DNA of 64,000 nucleotides from Terriglobia bacterium (GTDB lineage Bacteria; Acidobacteriota; Terriglobia; 20CM-2-55-15), in contig CAXWPJ010000001.1 of assembly GCA_963664115.2 (NCBI GenBank), forward strand, positions 32,001 to 96,000, given 5' to 3'. Below the pieces are notes generated by a model. The model was not told the DNA's origin. It saw only the letters and a program-made list of their open reading frames with translations, and did no database searches. Each line of letters opens with the position of its first letter. The first letter of the stretch is position 1. The position numbers and the translations under genes are program-made. Shown piece after piece: positions 1 to 38,451 of the stretch.

Positions 1-990
1 ATCCTCGTAGTCAATCTGCGTGGGAACCGTGCCGACCGCGGTTTCGGAATAGCGCACCAATCGCACCAACAGGCCCGACTCGTCATCGAAGTACAGATTC
101 ACCGGAGCCTGTCCGGGGTTTGTCCCCTGAACGACTTGAACTTGTCGATCCTCGATGAAGGTCGAGAAGCCGACCCGCCACTGACTGAAGGCTTGTTGGA
201 TCTCAGATGGAAAAGACAGCACCGCCTCCGTTCTGGCGCCGTCCAGATTCCCTCCCGTCAACTGTATCAAGGGCACCGGTTTGTCCCCCGATGCGATCCA
301 ACCTTCGCGCCCATCGAAGGTTCTGACGCTGGGCCCGAAGAACGCATCAACGATCGTCGCACGCCGATCCGGAACTTGTGCAAACACTTCCACGGGATAC
401 GGCACATGTTCGGTTTCGTATCCACTATAAATTCCTTTGGCGACGAAGCTGGTAATGTTGGACAGGAGATCGGCGCCGCCAAGCGCGTCGATATACTTGT
501 CAAAAACTTGATCGGCGTTCGGCATCCCAGGAATGGCCTGTGCGGGGAAGAAGATTTCATGAGGATCTGATGGAGGCAGCGTGTACTGGATTCCCAGGTC
601 GGGTATGACCTGGGGGCGCGGGTTGCCGCGATGGCAGCTATAACAGGTGACGAAGGGCAGTCCTCCGAAGTTGTCCCTGTTGATCTGGTTTACCATCTCC
701 GTCATCGCCCGTGCCGTCCGCTTCAAGGGCGTTTCTTCGGCAAAGTTTTCCCAACCGCTGAGGCCTTCCAAGCCGTGGCAACTCACGCAACCTAAACTCA
801 AAGAGGCCGAGTACATCCCCATCGTGTCCATGAATTCGTCCACGGGAATATCGCCGAGAACGGGAACGTTCAAGAACACGTCTCTCGCCAGCTGTGGTTG
901 CTGTTGGGGTTCTGCCGCCGATACGACGCACGCACACGCAAGAGCCATGACGAGTGCGGGCAGAAGCCGTCGCCATCGTAACTGCTTCAC
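1..990 (-). CDS. Secreted diheme c-type cytochrome (photosynthetic reaction-centre cytochrome c/PufC-like domain) with C-terminal beta-rich domain; runs off the window edge
   Basis: Not in the ORF track because it has no stop in the window. Manual translation from GTG 990 (RBS AGGAGA at 995-1000) gives MKQLRWRRLLPALVMALACACVVSAA (signal peptide), then FLNVPVLGDIPVDEFMDTMGMYSASLSLGCVSCH and FVTCYSCHRG (two CxxCH motifs). The frame is open to position 1. Confidence 0.85.
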   Translation of the reverse strand, partial: MKQLRWRRLLPALVMALACACVVSAAEPQQQPQLARDVFLNVPVLGDIPVDEFMDTMGMYSASLSLGCVSCHGLEGLSGWENFAEETPLKRTARAMTEMVNQINRDNFGGLPFVTCYSCHRGNPRPQVIPDLGIQYTLPPSDPHEIFFPAQAIPGMPNADQVFDKYIDALGGADLLSNITSFVAKGIYSGYETEHVPYPVEVFAQVPDRRATIVDAFFGPSVRTFDGREGWIASGDKPVPLIQLTGGNLDGARTEAVLSFPSEIQQAFSQWRVGFSTFIEDRQVQVVQGTNPGQAPVNLYFDDESGLLVRLVRYSETAVGTVPTQIDYED

Positions 991-1281: not shown

Positions 1282-1698
1282 CTATTGAGATACCACTACT
1301 CCAGTGCGCGCCGCACCGGAGGAGAAATTGACTACCGTCCCGTCGGGCCGGGTGACGTTTCCAGCCAACAGGGCCTTCGCACCTTCCTGACGCGAAGGGT
1401 TGCCTGAAACCTTTACCTTCATGCCAGCGGGGAGAGTGTCTTGCCTCCAACCTCCACGGATCATTCCAGTAGCGTGGCCGCCACCGCTGATCCTCCACAC
1501 GGTCGTCTCACCATTCGGTTCTGTCACTTCAAGAACCAACTCTGGATGGGGGTTGACCATCTTGACTTCCAAAACAACGCCTTCGATCTCAACCTCACGA
1601 TCCGTGAACCAGAAATTTACGGCCGAGTGGTGTGCCTCGGCTACAACACTCAAGGTCAAGAACAAGCCAATAGATACAACTGTCATAAACAACCGCAT
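1282..1698 (-). CDS. DUF6152-like secreted protein (copy 1)
   Basis: ATG 1698 with GGAGGA RBS. Signal peptide ends VAEA, followed by HHSAVNF; motifs EGVVLEVKMVNPH, W, GW, G..V.V.GNPSR. Homologous to 37004..37519. Confidence 0.75.
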   Translation of the reverse strand: MRLFMTVVSIGLFLTLSVVAEAHHSAVNFWFTDREVEIEGVVLEVKMVNPHPELVLEVTEPNGETTVWRISGGGHATGMIRGGWRQDTLPAGMKVKVSGNPSRQEGAKALLAGNVTRPDGTVVNFSSGAARTGVVVSQ

Positions 1699-1770
1699 AC
1701 GTGCATCCTCCGTCCGCCGGTTGAACCGGCTAGTCAAACTGGCTGGAATAATGCTCACTTTGAGCCATGG

Positions 1771-2646
1771 CTACTGCCTCAACCTCTCCAGCTCGTTTGC
1801 ATACTCCGCATCATCCGCATACCTTTGAGGTATCGTATCGTACAAGTGGTTCAGGCCGACCTCGGGATCGCAATTCCATTCGCCGACGAAGTCCGTATCG
1901 GTCTTTATATACGGATTCGTCCATGTCACCGGCTCATTCAGGAATGTAGGATCCTCTACCGTCATTTCAATCTCCAGTTCCCCTGGGCCAACCGCCCTGT
2001 AACGTTCGGTCAACTTTTTTCTGAACGAGGTTGCCATATGGATGTGGTCGTCCCACCCATCTGGATCAAATACGAAATTTGTGGTTTCGACAACAAATTC
2101 ATCTCCTTCCATGCGGCCGATAGAGTGGCCATGCTGAAAGGTCTGTTCAGCGGGCGGGTGAGGCCGTCCATCAACCCAAATACTCCGCACCCAATTCGAT
2201 TGCTCGAAGTGTTGCAGTACGACATCCGACCTGGCGGTTAGATTCCACAAATACGGCTCCGAAAGCAGGATCTGAATGCCTTCCGCGACACAGGTCCACT
2301 TACCTGATATTGGTTCGTCAACAAACTCAAGCCAAGCATGTGCTCTTCCGTTCATCACCGATTCCACTTGCTCCACGGGATACTGGCAGGTTCCCTGCGG
2401 ATTGCCATAAGCGCCTGTTGTGGAGCCGCAAGAGAAACCGGTGAACGATCTCGTATACTGCCACATGCCTATGAAGTCTCGGTTAAAGTTAAAAACCGTT
2501 GGAGTTTCCGGGAAGCCGGAAGGCGTTGGATTCTGAGCGGCCAAATCCGCCGGCCCGACGCCGCTTACGATCATCAGAAACGCGAGACTCACTGCCACGT
2601 TTTGTGCCCTCAACCAGCGCAATCCGGCTTCCTTGAGGTAGTACAT
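1771..2646 (-). CDS. Conserved secreted hypothetical protein, 'GHSxGxxEGDxxVVxT' family (copy 1)
   Basis: ATG 2646 with AAGGAG RBS. Signal peptide; motifs DFIGMW, WVRSIWVDGRPHP, GHSIGRMEGDEFVVETTNF, LTERY, EDP, EWNC. Homologous to 37600..38451. Confidence 0.75.
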   Translation of the reverse strand: MYYLKEAGLRWLRAQNVAVSLAFLMIVSGVGPADLAAQNPTPSGFPETPTVFNFNRDFIGMWQYTRSFTGFSCGSTTGAYGNPQGTCQYPVEQVESVMNGRAHAWLEFVDEPISGKWTCVAEGIQILLSEPYLWNLTARSDVVLQHFEQSNWVRSIWVDGRPHPPAEQTFQHGHSIGRMEGDEFVVETTNFVFDPDGWDDHIHMATSFRKKLTERYRAVGPGELEIEMTVEDPTFLNEPVTWTNPYIKTDTDFVGEWNCDPEVGLNHLYDTIPQRYADDAEYANELERLRQ

Positions 2647-3057: not shown

Positions 3058-3909
3058 ATGCGCACTAAAATTTTAGTTATATCGCTGGCCGCGATTGTGG
3101 GCGTTGCCCTCGCTGCTGTAACGGCAGCAACGCAACAGCCGGAACAACCGCCGGTAGAGATCAGTGAAGTGGCCGATGGCCTGTACATCGTCACAGGGCC
3201 GGGGGGCAACGTTGGCGTACGCGTCACATCGGAAGGTGTCGTCGTCATCGATGACAAGTTCGAGGACAACTACGACGACATCGTTGCCAGCATCGCGAGC
3301 GTCACAGACCAGCCGATCCGCTATGTTTTCAATACGCACCATCATGGGGATCACACCGGCAGCAACGTACAATTCGCAGCGCTCGCGCCGATCTTGGCAC
3401 ACGAGAACGTGCGCACGAACATCCTTAGAAACGATCAACCTGGAGCGCCATCCATTGTCTATACAGACCAGACGGCCGTCTACCTGGGCGATGCGACTGT
3501 CGAAGCCCTCTATATGGGCCGCGGACACACCGATGGTGACTCCGTCATCTATTTCCCGGACTTGAGGGTCGTCCACATGGGTGATCTGTCTTTCGGTGGG
3601 GGCACACCCTACATCGACTTCGGCAACGGTGGAAGCGCCCTCGAGTTGATGCGCACTTACGACAATATTCTCGAACTGGATTTCGACACAGCTATTCCCG
3701 GTCACGGTAACGTGATGACGAAGGCCGACGTCGCAGTTTTTCGGGACGCGTTCCAGGATCTTCTCGACACCGGCCGGCAGCTCATATCGGATGGCGTTTC
3801 CGAGGACGACTTAGCCGCGCGCCTGGCTCAGGTATACCCGGAATTGAGTTACGAAACCGGATTCCCGGCCCAGAGCATACCGGGGATTTACGCGGAACTT
3901 TCAGAGTAG
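3058..3909 (+). CDS. Secreted MBL-fold metallo-hydrolase (cyclase/glyoxalase II-like)
   Basis: ATG 3058 after AGGAGG. Signal peptide; NTHHHGDHTG, GHTDGD, HMGDL and IPGHG motifs. Confidence 0.9.
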   Translation: MRTKILVISLAAIVGVALAAVTAATQQPEQPPVEISEVADGLYIVTGPGGNVGVRVTSEGVVVIDDKFEDNYDDIVASIASVTDQPIRYVFNTHHHGDHTGSNVQFAALAPILAHENVRTNILRNDQPGAPSIVYTDQTAVYLGDATVEALYMGRGHTDGDSVIYFPDLRVVHMGDLSFGGGTPYIDFGNGGSALELMRTYDNILELDFDTAIPGHGNVMTKADVAVFRDAFQDLLDTGRQLISDGVSEDDLAARLAQVYPELSYETGFPAQSIPGIYAELSE

Positions 3910-10145: not shown

Positions 10146-12032
10146 TCCCTGAACAAGCGTGATTGACGAGGAAATGATAGTGCAATAAGAGCGGAAGTAC
10201 CCGAAATGCCCCCTCTCCGTGCGAAAAAAACCTTGAACAGATTCTTCGGAAAAGGAGGCATTTCAGATGAACGATTATACGCGCAAGAACATGAGGAACC
10301 GCAAGCGGCGAATCGAACGTCGGCTTGGGGACCGGCATTGGACGGATCAGGTAGAGCCGATGTTTTCGGCGAGCAACATTCAGTACGAGATGGGAGAGCG
10401 GACGCGGGGCAAAACATTCAGTACGAGATGGGAGAGCGGACGCGGGGCACATCGGTTGGTGGTATCGGGACGATGCAACTGGTGGCGCGGCGGACCGGGC
10501 TGATCGAAGCCATCGACAAGGGCGTGCATGTGTTGAAGCGGCACCTGCCGTATCACGAGTCGGATCACGTGCTGAACATCGCCTACAACGCCTTGAGCGG
10601 AGGAACGTGCCTGGAAGACATCGAACTGCGGCGCAACGATGCGGTGTATCTGGATGCGCTGGGAGCGCAACGGATTCCGGATCCGACGACGGCGGGAGAC
10701 TTCTGCCGGAGATTCGAGGCCGACGACGTGGAGTGTCTGATGGAGGCAACCAATCAAGTCCGGCTCGGAGTCTGGCGACAGCAACCGGCGGCGTTTTTCG
10801 AAGAAGCGGTGTTGGACGCGGACGGGACACTGGCCGAAACCACGGGGGAATGCAAGCAAGGGATGGACGTGGCCTACGACGGGACGTGGGGATATCACCC
10901 GCTGATGATCTCGCTGGCCAACACCGCCGAACCGCTGTATCTGGTCAATCGTAGCGGCAACCGGCCGTCGCATGAAGGAGCCGCGGTCCGGTTCGACCAA
11001 GCCATCGCATTGTGCCGGCATGCGGGGTTTCGCCAGATCCTGCTGCGCGGGGACACGGACTTCAGCCAGACCCGGCATCTGGACGGATGGGACGACCAGC
11101 AGGTGGGTTTCATATTCGGGATTGACGCGATGGCGAACCTGAAGGCCCGGGCCGATGAACTGGAGCCGCGCCAGTGGAAGCGCCTGGAACGGCCCGCGAA
11201 ATACGACGTGGCGACCGAACCGCGCCAACGTCCCGACAACGTGAAGGAAGAGATCGTTCGGCAGCGCGGTTTCGACAATATCCGCTTGCAGGGTGAGGAT
11301 GTGGCCGAGTTTCGGTATCGACCCGGAGCCTGCGATCGGGACTACCGTGTCGTCGTGGTGCGGAAGAATCTGTCGGTGGCCAAAGGAGAGCAGGTGTTGT
11401 TTGACGACATCCGGTACTTCTTCTACATTACCAACCGTTCGGATCCGGCCGACCAGATTGTGATGCGTGCCAATCAACGGTGCAATCAGGAGAATCTCAT
11501 TGAGCAGTTGAAGAACGGCGTTCAGGCGTTGCGGATGCCGGTCGGAGATCAGACCAGCAACTGGGCCTACATGGTGATCGCGTCACTGGCCTGGACACTG
11601 AAAGCGTGGTTTGCATTGCTGCTTCCCGAAACCGGACGTTGGGGCCAAAAATATCAGGCTGAGAAGCAAACCGTGCTGCGCATGGAGTTCAAAACCTTCT
11701 TGAACGCTTTCATGCTTGTGCCGTGCCAACTCGTGCGCACCGGGCGGCGCATTCTGTTCCGGATCCTGGCCTGGAACCGGTGGTTGCCGGTCTTGTTCCG
11801 CGGGGTGGATGTGTTGCGTCAGCCTCTGCGATGTTGACCCGATCATGACTCTGAGCCCGGGCGATCGAGGTCCCGGTTTCTGTCAACCGTCCAACACCAG
11901 CGAGGCTGAACTGAAACAGATTCAACAGAAACTCGATACCTGGAACAGGCCATCCGGGAACGGGATTCTATGCCTCGAATTCTATCGGCGCGAACTGGGC
12001 CTCGGCGGACTGGTTATGCGCTTGTTTTGGGA
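10146..12032 (+). mobile_element. IS1380-family insertion sequence
   Basis: Terminal IRs TCCCTGAACAAGCG / CGCTTGTTTTGGGA, each flanked by CTAG (10142-45 and 12033-36). Contains a DDE transposase. Confidence 0.85.
10267..11837 (+). pseudogene. IS1380-family transposase, frameshifted by a 38-bp tandem duplication
   Basis: N-terminus MNDYTRKNMRNRKRRIERRL (ATG 10267, RBS AGGAGG) is in a different frame from the body (HLPYHESDHVLN, LDADGT, LRGDTDFS, ENLIEQLK). Duplicated copies at 10375-10411 and 10413-10449. Confidence 0.85.
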
Positions 12033-37003: not shown

Positions 37004-37519
37004 ATGAAAGTCAAGGTATTCGTTTTTTTGGGGTTGACGGCAGGGTTGCTCATGATTTCGGGTTCGGTTTTGGCACACCACTCGAATGCGCCATCAGACA
37101 AGGACCGCCTGGTGACACTGACGGGAACGGTAACGAACTTCGCGTTCCGGAATCCGCATGTGGGCGTGTCTATTGACGTCACGGATGACCAAGGCAACGT
37201 TGTGAATTGGTTTGCCTCCGGCGGCTCTCCTAGAAACCTCGCCAGGGATGCCGGCTGGAACAACAAGACACTTACCAAGGGAGAACAGATCCTTGTTCAA
37301 GGCCACCCGAATCGAGACGGCAGGCCACTGCTCCTGTTCATGAGATATTATCGATGTAGTGGCGAAATGATCCCGGTAGATAACAATAAGACCCTTGCAG
37401 GAGCGTACTTAACACGCGTACAAATGGCACCCCTCGAAGCGACTCGCGTCCAGGCCGTTTGCGCTGGACGAGAGCAGATTCCCGATATTTTTGGCCCGCT
37501 AGCCGGGGACACAAACTAG
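37004..37519 (+). CDS. DUF6152-like secreted protein (copy 2)
   Basis: RBS GGAGG. Signal peptide ends SVLA, followed by HHSNA; TLTGTVTNFAFRNPH, W, GW, G..I.V.GHPNR; extra C-terminal Cys pair. Confidence 0.78.
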   Translation: MKVKVFVFLGLTAGLLMISGSVLAHHSNAPSDKDRLVTLTGTVTNFAFRNPHVGVSIDVTDDQGNVVNWFASGGSPRNLARDAGWNNKTLTKGEQILVQGHPNRDGRPLLLFMRYYRCSGEMIPVDNNKTLAGAYLTRVQMAPLEATRVQAVCAGREQIPDIFGPLAGDTN

Positions 37520-37599: not shown

Positions 37600-38451
37600 A
37601 TGAGGATGAGCTTTGCAGTTTTGACCTCGGCCGCGCTACTGGCCTTCGCGCCCGGCATCTTTGCGCAGACTGCACCGGACGCAAGTAGTGCAGGAATAAT
37701 GCGAACTGCGGATGGTCTGCCAGATTTTTCCGGATACTGGGTGCGCGGAGGCGGCGGAGGTGGCGGAGGCGGTGCAAGACAGCTGAGCGAGTTTCAGGGG
37801 GGTGACGCCCCCCGCGCCCCGACCCGAATCGAATTGGCCGAGGCGCTTCCTCTCACCCCTGAGGGGAGGAGATTAGTCGAACAATACACGTCAACCGATG
37901 GGGAATGGGCTGGAGAAACGGGCCTTTTCAATGATGCCGGCCATCACCGCGTCCCTTGCGGCCCGGCGAGCCCTGGAGACCTCGGCCCCCCGGTCGAGAT
38001 CGTTCAGAATCCGGCGCGCCTGCTCATGGTCTATACGGGAGGCGACACGAAATGGATCCGTCAGATCTGGATCGGGCGACAGCATCCCGAGGACCTCACG
38101 GACTACGAGACGGCTTGGATGGGTCATTCGGTTGGCCACTGGGAGGGAGACACCCTCGTGGTCGATACCGTCAGGGTGACTACAACACCCGGACTCATGG
38201 TGGATTTTAATACGGCCGCACCCCAGGGCCCTGACTTTCACCTGATTGAGCGTATGAGTTTGGCTCCCGACCAGCAATTGCACATCGAGAAAACGCTCGA
38301 AGACCCGGAAATGTATGTCCGCCCTTGGACGAAAAGCCAGGTTCTTCGGAAGGAGACGAACTGGGACGACGTTGCATTTGACTGGGAGATAGAAGAACAG
38401 CACCTCGTGTGCGAGGATGGCCGCTACCCATCGGACAACAACCCTTACTAA
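37600..38451 (+). CDS. Conserved secreted hypothetical protein, 'GHSxGxWEGDTLVVDT' family (copy 2)
   Basis: RBS AAGGAG. Signal peptide; PDFSGYW, C, WIRQIWIGRQHP, GHSVGHWEGDTLVVDT, LIER, EDP..Y..PWT, C. Confidence 0.78.
   Translation: MRMSFAVLTSAALLAFAPGIFAQTAPDASSAGIMRTADGLPDFSGYWVRGGGGGGGGGARQLSEFQGGDAPRAPTRIELAEALPLTPEGRRLVEQYTSTDGEWAGETGLFNDAGHHRVPCGPASPGDLGPPVEIVQNPARLLMVYTGGDTKWIRQIWIGRQHPEDLTDYETAWMGHSVGHWEGDTLVVDTVRVTTTPGLMVDFNTAAPQGPDFHLIERMSLAPDQQLHIEKTLEDPEMYVRPWTKSQVLRKETNWDDVAFDWEIEEQHLVCEDGRYPSDNNPY

Follow-up and report, generated by a model that had tools for sequence, protein, structure and literature searches.

The window analysed here, a stretch of 64,000 nucleotides, encodes two unrelated secreted proteins side by side at two separate places. 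What do these proteins do, and do they form one system? An earlier note on this DNA read them as an undescribed periplasmic metal-binding or redox module of two families, one DUF6152-like (A) and one unnamed (B). The two-family module is borne out, while its expansion, its gene fusions and its linkage to DUF6644 membrane proteins and cytochrome c had been missed. No component of the module belongs to a characterised family by the profile and fold tests run. No paper naming DUF6152, DUF6644, PF19649 or PF20349 was found (subscription papers and bioRxiv supplements lay outside the search), in agreement with the initial remark that neither family has a characterised function.

Gene pairs and their neighbours

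Both gene pairs are real (Table 1), and their order is swapped between the loci as described: B1 precedes A1 on the reverse strand with a spacing of 72 nt, and A2 precedes B2 on the forward strand with a spacing of 80 nt. A Shine-Dalgarno-like GGAG(G) lies upstream of all four genes. Identity is 27% between A1 and A2 and 28% between B1 and B2, and the pairs occupy separate tree positions. A recent duplication of one locus into the other is thereby rejected, as the note had argued. Its phrase "present twice" is an understatement: the pairs are two among 126 A and 145 B paralogues and belong to different parts of the tree. Both fall in diverged clades, and neither has DUF6644 nearby. Pair 2 is retained in three of four congeners (A 79-84%, B 83-91%). 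For pair 1, the nearest relatives are arranged as B-A-A triplets.

The diheme cytochrome downstream of A1 extends past the left end of the window, and its C-terminal part is DUF6544-like. It has five genomic paralogues, four of them near modules, and is not retained beside the closest relatives of pair 1 in congeners. This family also heads the single-copy operon of one other genome (G025).

Table 1. Module genes, predicted functional residues and flanking genes in the window
Feature	Position	Strand	Remarks
Secreted diheme c-type cytochrome, two CxxCH, reaction-centre cytochrome-like domain	1..990	-	Downstream of A1, same strand
A1, DUF6152 protein, predicted OB fold	1282..1698	-	138 aa; signal peptide 1-22
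A1 NPH histidine	1546..1548	-	Mature His29; from sequence
A1 mature His1-His2 codons	1627..1632	-	Directly after VAEA signal peptidase site
B1, unnamed secreted FABP-like barrel (predicted)	1771..2646	-	291 aa
B1 invariant Cys259	1870-1872	-	
B1 invariant Cys119	2290-2292	-	
B1 additional subfamily Cys pair			Cys73/Cys87; from sequence
Secreted metallo-beta-lactamase-fold hydrolase	3058..3909	+	Divergent from B1
A2, DUF6152 protein	37004..37519	+	171 aa
A2 His1-His2	37076-37081	+	
A2 NPH histidine	37157-37159	+	Mature residue 28
A2 C-terminal extension			Two Cys
B2, unnamed secreted barrel (predicted)	37600..38451	+	283 aa
B2 invariant Cys120	37957-37959	+	
B2 invariant Cys271	38410-38412	+	

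The DUF6152 protein and its metal tip

A1 and A2 are DUF6152 members, matched by the PF19649 profile with 70.4 bits (E 1.4e-19) and 77.1 bits (E 1.2e-21) against a cut-off of 27 bits. Three histidines are invariant or nearly so among 446 pooled A sequences, counted over the rows aligned at each column: His1 353/353, His2 354/355 and the NPH His 446/446. In a raw scan, 442 of 446 sequences show His-His at the spacing expected. VAEA in A1 and SVLA in A2 stand directly before HHS, with the NPH His at the tabulated residues, as first reported. Signal cleavage is predicted from an A-x-A-type site and a hydrophobic h-region directly before His1. Of 124 A proteins, 123 have Ala, Gly or Ser at the position before His1, and the h-region is found in 115 of 120, so the proposed exposure of His1 holds up as a prediction.

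The fold was modelled on a fused paralogue rather than on A1, with pLDDT 94-98 over residues 11-100. Residues 4-96 of the model align to OB folds (SSB Z 8.6, rmsd 3.0, 85 aligned), not to the Ig-like beta-sandwich of LPMO and CopC. Neither A1 nor A2 matches CopC (PF04234) or the LPMO Pfam models at E<=0.1, and a PDB sequence search with A1 gives nothing significant. CusF, CcmE and BOF proteins, which are periplasmic OB folds, do not appear among the top 50 fold matches, an absence that does not rule them out. Residues 3-8 covary only weakly with the NPH loop (z 2-2.5); apparent His-His and Cys-Cys couplings were discarded as artefacts of invariance.

An N-terminal His left by signal cleavage chelates transition metals regardless of fold (PMC12537917, available passages). 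A very probably binds a transition metal at its processed tip, with Cu or Ni the most likely ion. The copper histidine brace proposed for this site survives as one of at least three geometries that His1-His2...His28 would allow; the predicted fold is OB and not Ig-like. As far as the available passages of PMC10952591 go, the brace motif uses His1 plus one further His, and an adjacent His2 is not part of the definition. The tip need not be a copper brace, and by analogy the invariant His2 would fit a planar site of the NikM type, in which the first two residues and a distal His are the ligands. In NikM itself, Ni is held by Met1, His2 and His67 (PMC3945884, available part). On the ATCUN-like model of NikM/CbiM, A could bind through the His1 amine, the His2 amide and imidazole, and the NPH His, with the His1 ring axial. 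NikM is a membrane transporter subunit, whereas A is soluble.

LPMOs, the PmoB CuB site and X325/Bim1 likewise combine an exposed His1, predicted in A, with a further invariant His. A differs from them in its predicted OB fold, in its invariant His2, which lies outside the brace definition (PMC10952591, available passages), and in its two-subunit design. DUF4198, DUF6702 and the anglerases are also secreted DUF proteins with His1 and a further His, but have other folds, and His1 is 79% and 65% conserved there; such His1 DUFs prefer Ni and are without activity, and DUF6152 is not named in the available passages or the five searched supplement files of this source (PMC12537917).

The barrel partner

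No Pfam or NCBIfam family reaches its cut-off with B1 or B2; B1 has no PDB sequence match, and an Atlas search with it returns unnamed clusters only. The predicted fold is of the FABP type, with nanoKAZ (Z 8.6), LBP-8 (8.5), UnaG (8.2) and nitrobindin (7.2) as matches. Structure alignments of the barrel reach Z 8.2-8.6 with rmsd 2.6-3.5 over 96-114 aligned residues, and Foldseek gives a probability of 1.0 against CRABP II and UnaG. The model is a 10-stranded antiparallel barrel with a GxW start and a helical lid, which places it among the calycin/iLBP barrels together with FABP/CRABP, UnaG, nanoKAZ luciferase and nitrobindin. Unlike these calycins, B is secreted, has an invariant Cys pair and an OB-fold partner, shares 10-18% identity and lacks sequence-level PDB or Pfam matches. 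For the models of both A and B, the Z values indicate a common fold and not a function.

The two Cys are invariant (448/448 and 404/404 among 451 B sequences) and in all likelihood form the disulfide suggested at the outset. The label "Cys/His partner" does not hold for the His: Cys alone is invariant, the GHS His occurs in 55 of 143 and the RxHP His in 60 of 145, and conserved His was rejected as a feature of the family. All motifs listed for the partners are present in B1 and B2 themselves. Arg196, Gly215, Glu254 and Asp273 are 98-100% conserved among the 451 sequences and look structural; Arg196 and Glu254 covary in the manner of a structural salt bridge. Beyond these Cys, Arg, Glu, Asp and Gly there is no invariant catalytic-looking residue in B. 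A catalytic role, one half of the original proposal for the partner, is unsupported; the other half, supply of a ligand or substrate pocket, is plausible.

Pairing, co-divergence and fusion

A same-strand B lies within 500 nt of 87 of the 118 unfused A genes (52 A-B, 28 B-A, 7 both), compared with 3.7 under random placement (maximum 9) and 6.3 under local shifts (maximum 14). Conversely, 88 of 137 unfused B have an A beside them. Such neighbourhood statistics, foreseen in the earlier note, put A-B co-occurrence far above chance. Among 73 unambiguous pairs and fusions (78 minus 5 near-duplicates), A and B distances correlate at 0.48 against a null maximum of 0.21, and in 50 of 73 cases, versus 3 expected, the three nearest B include the partner of the nearest A neighbour. 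This co-divergence shows that A and B are inherited as units, not that they bind. The idea of an ancient, co-evolving, two-family secreted module is supported.

Eight A-B fusions occur in this genome and arose at three tree positions. One natural fusion, folded on 150 sequences, reaches pLDDT 94.3 and pTM 0.90, and the model suggests a fixed packing of A and B as one rigid unit. A direct A-B complex is probable. Covariation over 217 paired rows gives no clear A-B interface, as inter-domain signals barely exceed shuffled controls (z 6.9 and 5.7 versus 5.4).

This genome also contains a tandem B-B fusion and B-B-A triplets (G000 C2:333461-335074; C2:353065-355519). The triplets combine two distinct B subfamilies, one ending in YACHE and the other in KCVE, which may point to a 2:1 complex in the core clade.

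Partners other than the barrel

The pair is not obligate, contrary to what had been supposed: 31 of the 118 unfused A lack a same-strand B within 500 nt, and 11 of these 31 pair with a PsbP-fold family. This family C is unnamed and secreted, has 13 copies in the genome and no Pfam match, and is predicted to adopt a PsbP/Mog1 fold (pLDDT 95.8). All 13 copies lie within two genes of an A, 11 of them directly adjacent on the same strand. Ten of the 11 adjacent A proteins group together in a quick tree (99% SH-aLRT); this clade has His-His-x-His and a Cys pair of its own. In fetched C loci, three of them from this genome, A follows C in 24 of 25, the exception being at a contig end. Family C has 1,259 database matches, with L021:2329-2967 (G000 C1:116328-116969) as one member.

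Two cultured Burkholderiales, Caballeronia grimmiae and Cupriavidus campinensis, likewise depart from the pair: in each, A and DUF6644 form a two-gene operon on a replicon that lacks B. Six of 11 plasmid records of cultured Proteobacteria were inspected; the other arrangements among them include A-B-DUF6644-DUF6644 in Sinorhizobium mexicanum, B-A plus a DUF6644 pair in Novosphingobium humi and Sphingobium, and A-A-B next to a TonB receptor in Croceibacterium.

Core locus with DUF6644 and a probable class II cytochrome c

The conserved core locus consists of B-B-A, two DUF6644 genes and a His/Met cytochrome c, probably of class II. B-B-A is kept in all eight single-copy genomes inspected, three of which are one genus. 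The DUF6644 pair is directly convergent in six of them and 7 kb away in one, and the remaining locus ends at the contig edge; a small cytochrome stands behind the pair in at least four. Among 78 core-clade loci from Acidobacteriota, Gemmatimonadota and Pseudomonadota, B is found in 73, class II cytochrome c in 41 and DUF6644 in 36 (48, 28 and 23 among the 50 full-length loci), counts that are biased by a query from the same locus type and include kin that are not independent. Gene orders vary and can be convergent, divergent or co-directional.

DUF6644 is present in 15 of 16 DUF6152-positive relatives and in 0 of 15 negative ones, and all 19 DUF6644 of this genome lie within 11 kb of an A. At the scale of two genes, the enrichment of cytochromes and DUF6644 in this genome failed a control with other secreted families: c-type cytochromes are near such families in 33 of 78 cases versus 17 of 78 near modules, and DUF6644 in 12 of 19 versus 14 of 19. 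The local enrichment is thus largely an island effect.

DUF6644 carries an invariant His33 (105/105), an invariant Lys101 (107/107) and two invariant Arg. In HemJ, the heme ligands are a His in helix 1 and a Lys in helix 3, and DUF6644 may well carry heme b. No paper was found on heme in CopD or on the HemJ ligands. Weak profile matches link 4 of 11 DUF6644 members to DUF2214 (best 1.8e-5) and 2 of 11 to CopD (best E 0.0012-0.0034, below cut-off and thus a distant likeness only); UPF0093 matches 1 of 11 (E 0.16). PDB sequence searches with DUF6644 and the cytochrome give nothing significant, and an Atlas search with DUF6644 gives no usable match.

The core cytochrome has a C-terminal CxxCH (CxxC 63/63, His 62/62) and an N-terminal Met (61/61), and matches PF01322 below cut-off only. 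A C-terminal CxxCH with an N-terminal Met as sixth ligand is the pattern of low-spin c556-type carriers. The family is unnamed (L047:9050-9556 and 62 relatives) and often lipoprotein-like, with Met, Trp and CxxCH invariant.

Expansion and distribution

Spanning 4.89 Mb at 97% completeness, the genome contains 125 DUF6152 matches, 124 of them over cut-off, while 14 control genomes have none. With iterated profiles the totals come to 126 A and 145 B, including 8 A-B fusions; these are ORF counts, and a few of the ORFs are fragments. Module genes make up 261 of 3,992 genes, or about 6.5% of the genome, on gene calls by a codon model made for this analysis. Among 30 relatives, DUF6152 is present in 4 of 4 congeners and 15 of 18 family members, many with 45 to more than 112 copies; across the phylum it is found in 11 of 121 sampled genomes. 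A profile of the fused form matches 24,090 clusters (50% identity), with full-length fusions making up all of the 150 best matches.

Several module copies are near-identical recent duplicates (G000 C2:264394/C6:43860/C11:2736; C2:11153/C2:155728; C4:1426/C5:138933; C6:6000/C11:76543), and broken copies also exist (e.g. G000 C9:1231793-1233994). The genome is rich in insertion sequences, and its largest non-module family has 79 copies; a transposase-like gene in the window (10428-11837) is a member. Recent duplication in this IS-rich background is the likely route of module expansion.

Families enriched near modules include NHL proteins (12/28), amidohydrolases (8/18) and MBL-fold hydrolases (16/44), the last being the family of the hydrolase next to B1. 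Two more unnamed secreted families are enriched there (the G000 C2:714826-715587 family, 7/12; the C6:32180 family, 4/5). No linked transporter or sensor kinase family is enriched.

Possible functions of the module

The reading preferred here, though short of an even chance, is that A and B are the two subunits of a periplasmic metalloprotein, which likely acts as a redox enzyme connected to DUF6644. The processed His-His tip of the OB-fold subunit A is predicted to hold a single transition-metal ion, the barrel subunit B would likely supply a variable ligand pocket, and the A-B unit would exchange electrons with the shared membrane partner DUF6644 via a c-type cytochrome. The 126/145-fold expansion, set against about 10 DUF6644 pairs, would reflect adaptation to different substrates, with the metal tip kept constant and the electron conduit shared. 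That the unit catalyses redox reactions of small organic substrates is proposed just as tentatively. The 126 diverged copies, each with its own partner, are more than one chaperone would need. Several points count against a redox enzyme: B has no invariant catalytic-looking residue of its own beyond those named above, three His and an amine may saturate the metal, and the B-less A-DUF6644 operons have the CopC-CopD layout. The N-terminal-His proteins DUF4198 and DUF6702, moreover, proved to be non-catalytic Ni binders (PMC12537917, available passages).

A serious rival, if an unlikely one, follows from that layout. A would serve as a periplasmic chaperone, picking up Cu or Ni and passing it on to a CopD-like DUF6644 for uptake or metalation; the cytochrome would reduce the metal, and B or C would be accessory ligand- or metallophore-binding partners or clients. 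CopC-CopD, YcnI/YcnJ and YobA/YebZ, like A with DUF6644, place a small secreted protein with a mature His1 beside a four-helix membrane protein with an invariant His, and copper supply by YcnJ of B. subtilis is backed by a CopC His brace and a CopD His (PMC13344008, available part). Metal capture explains the operons of Caballeronia and Cupriavidus better than a redox enzyme does, and it agrees with the weak likeness of DUF6644 to DUF2214 and CopD, with the genome having no CopC match and no CopD over cut-off in a profile search, and with the TonB-dependent receptors that flank some loci. Such receptors are found in only 4 of 78 core loci, however, and no copper-homeostasis family occurs among the annotated neighbour families (55 proteins). 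A also differs from CopC in its predicted OB fold, in its His1-His2 plus third His and in matching no CopC profile. Most A copies have a cognate barrel, there are more than 100 paralogues, the core locus includes a class II cytochrome c, and 126 diverged A co-evolving with B face only 19 DUF6644. The redox and metal-capture readings may both hold, with the two-gene A-DUF6644 form ancestral.

Non-catalytic binding or sensing, in which A would cap a barrel that holds small hydrophobic ligands, perhaps a tetrapyrrole or a metal complex, and lend it a His, is improbable. The closest folds of B are indeed binding proteins (FABP/CRABP, UnaG, nitrobindin), and no catalytic residue is invariant in it. 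Three invariant His and a free N-terminus nevertheless exceed the needs of an axial ligand, the His triad is retained when the partner is PsbP-fold or absent, and no transporter or sensor kinase is linked. A non-redox metallohydrolase or lyase, with three His holding Zn, Ni or Co and a water, the barrel holding the substrate and the paralogues degrading varied dissolved organics alongside the enriched hydrolases, is quite improbable: three-His sites are typical of Zn hydrolases, but the candidate base Glu (98 of 123 paralogues) is Ser in A1 and A2, and DUF6644 and the cytochrome are left unexplained.

Returning to the redox enzyme, its boldest extension is speculative and rather unlikely. DUF6152 would be the constant metal tip of a new modular class of periplasmic metallo-oxidoreductases that oxidise diverse dissolved organics, with exchangeable FABP-barrel or PsbP specificity subunits and a shared DUF6644-cytochrome c wire. 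Its His1-His2 "nitrogen hook" would be an all-nitrogen counterpart of the nickel hook of Ni-SOD, whose X1-His2...His pattern can be likened to A, and the His1 ring would switch on and off axially. If this is true, as much as several percent of the genes of uncultured Acidobacteriota, Gemmatimonadota and Gammaproteobacteria serve this purpose.

New in this analysis are the co-divergence test, the PsbP-fold family as an alternative partner, the operons of cultured hosts that lack B, the minimal core locus including a His/Met cytochrome, and the proposal of a rival metal geometry other than the brace. By cluster number and genome share, the module ranks with the larger systems still uncharacterised in environmental bacteria. 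If one fixed metal site works with interchangeable partners and has its own link to a membrane protein and cytochrome, it would represent new periplasmic metal chemistry; alternatively, the module would be a new metal-uptake route replacing CopCD. Minimal versions in the cultured, tractable hosts Cupriavidus, Caballeronia, Sinorhizobium mexicanum, Novosphingobium and Sphingobium make these readings directly testable.

Further observations

In two genes (L031:3876-4841 and L032:4183-5109), a DUF6644-like domain is fused behind a second membrane domain starting HxxxxHFP/HWP. This domain has no Pfam match at 1e-4, is presumably DUF2231-like and is possibly a further heme site.

Promoter and terminator scans give signals at chance level. 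RNA-library contigs from two studies overlap parts of A1 and B1 at a depth of 1-5, in runs chosen with this stretch and with DNA carry-over possible, and are not read as expression. A 41-nt segment of B1 (window 2186-2226) is matched by unrelated RNA contigs in three runs, probably through chance likeness to an abundant RNA.
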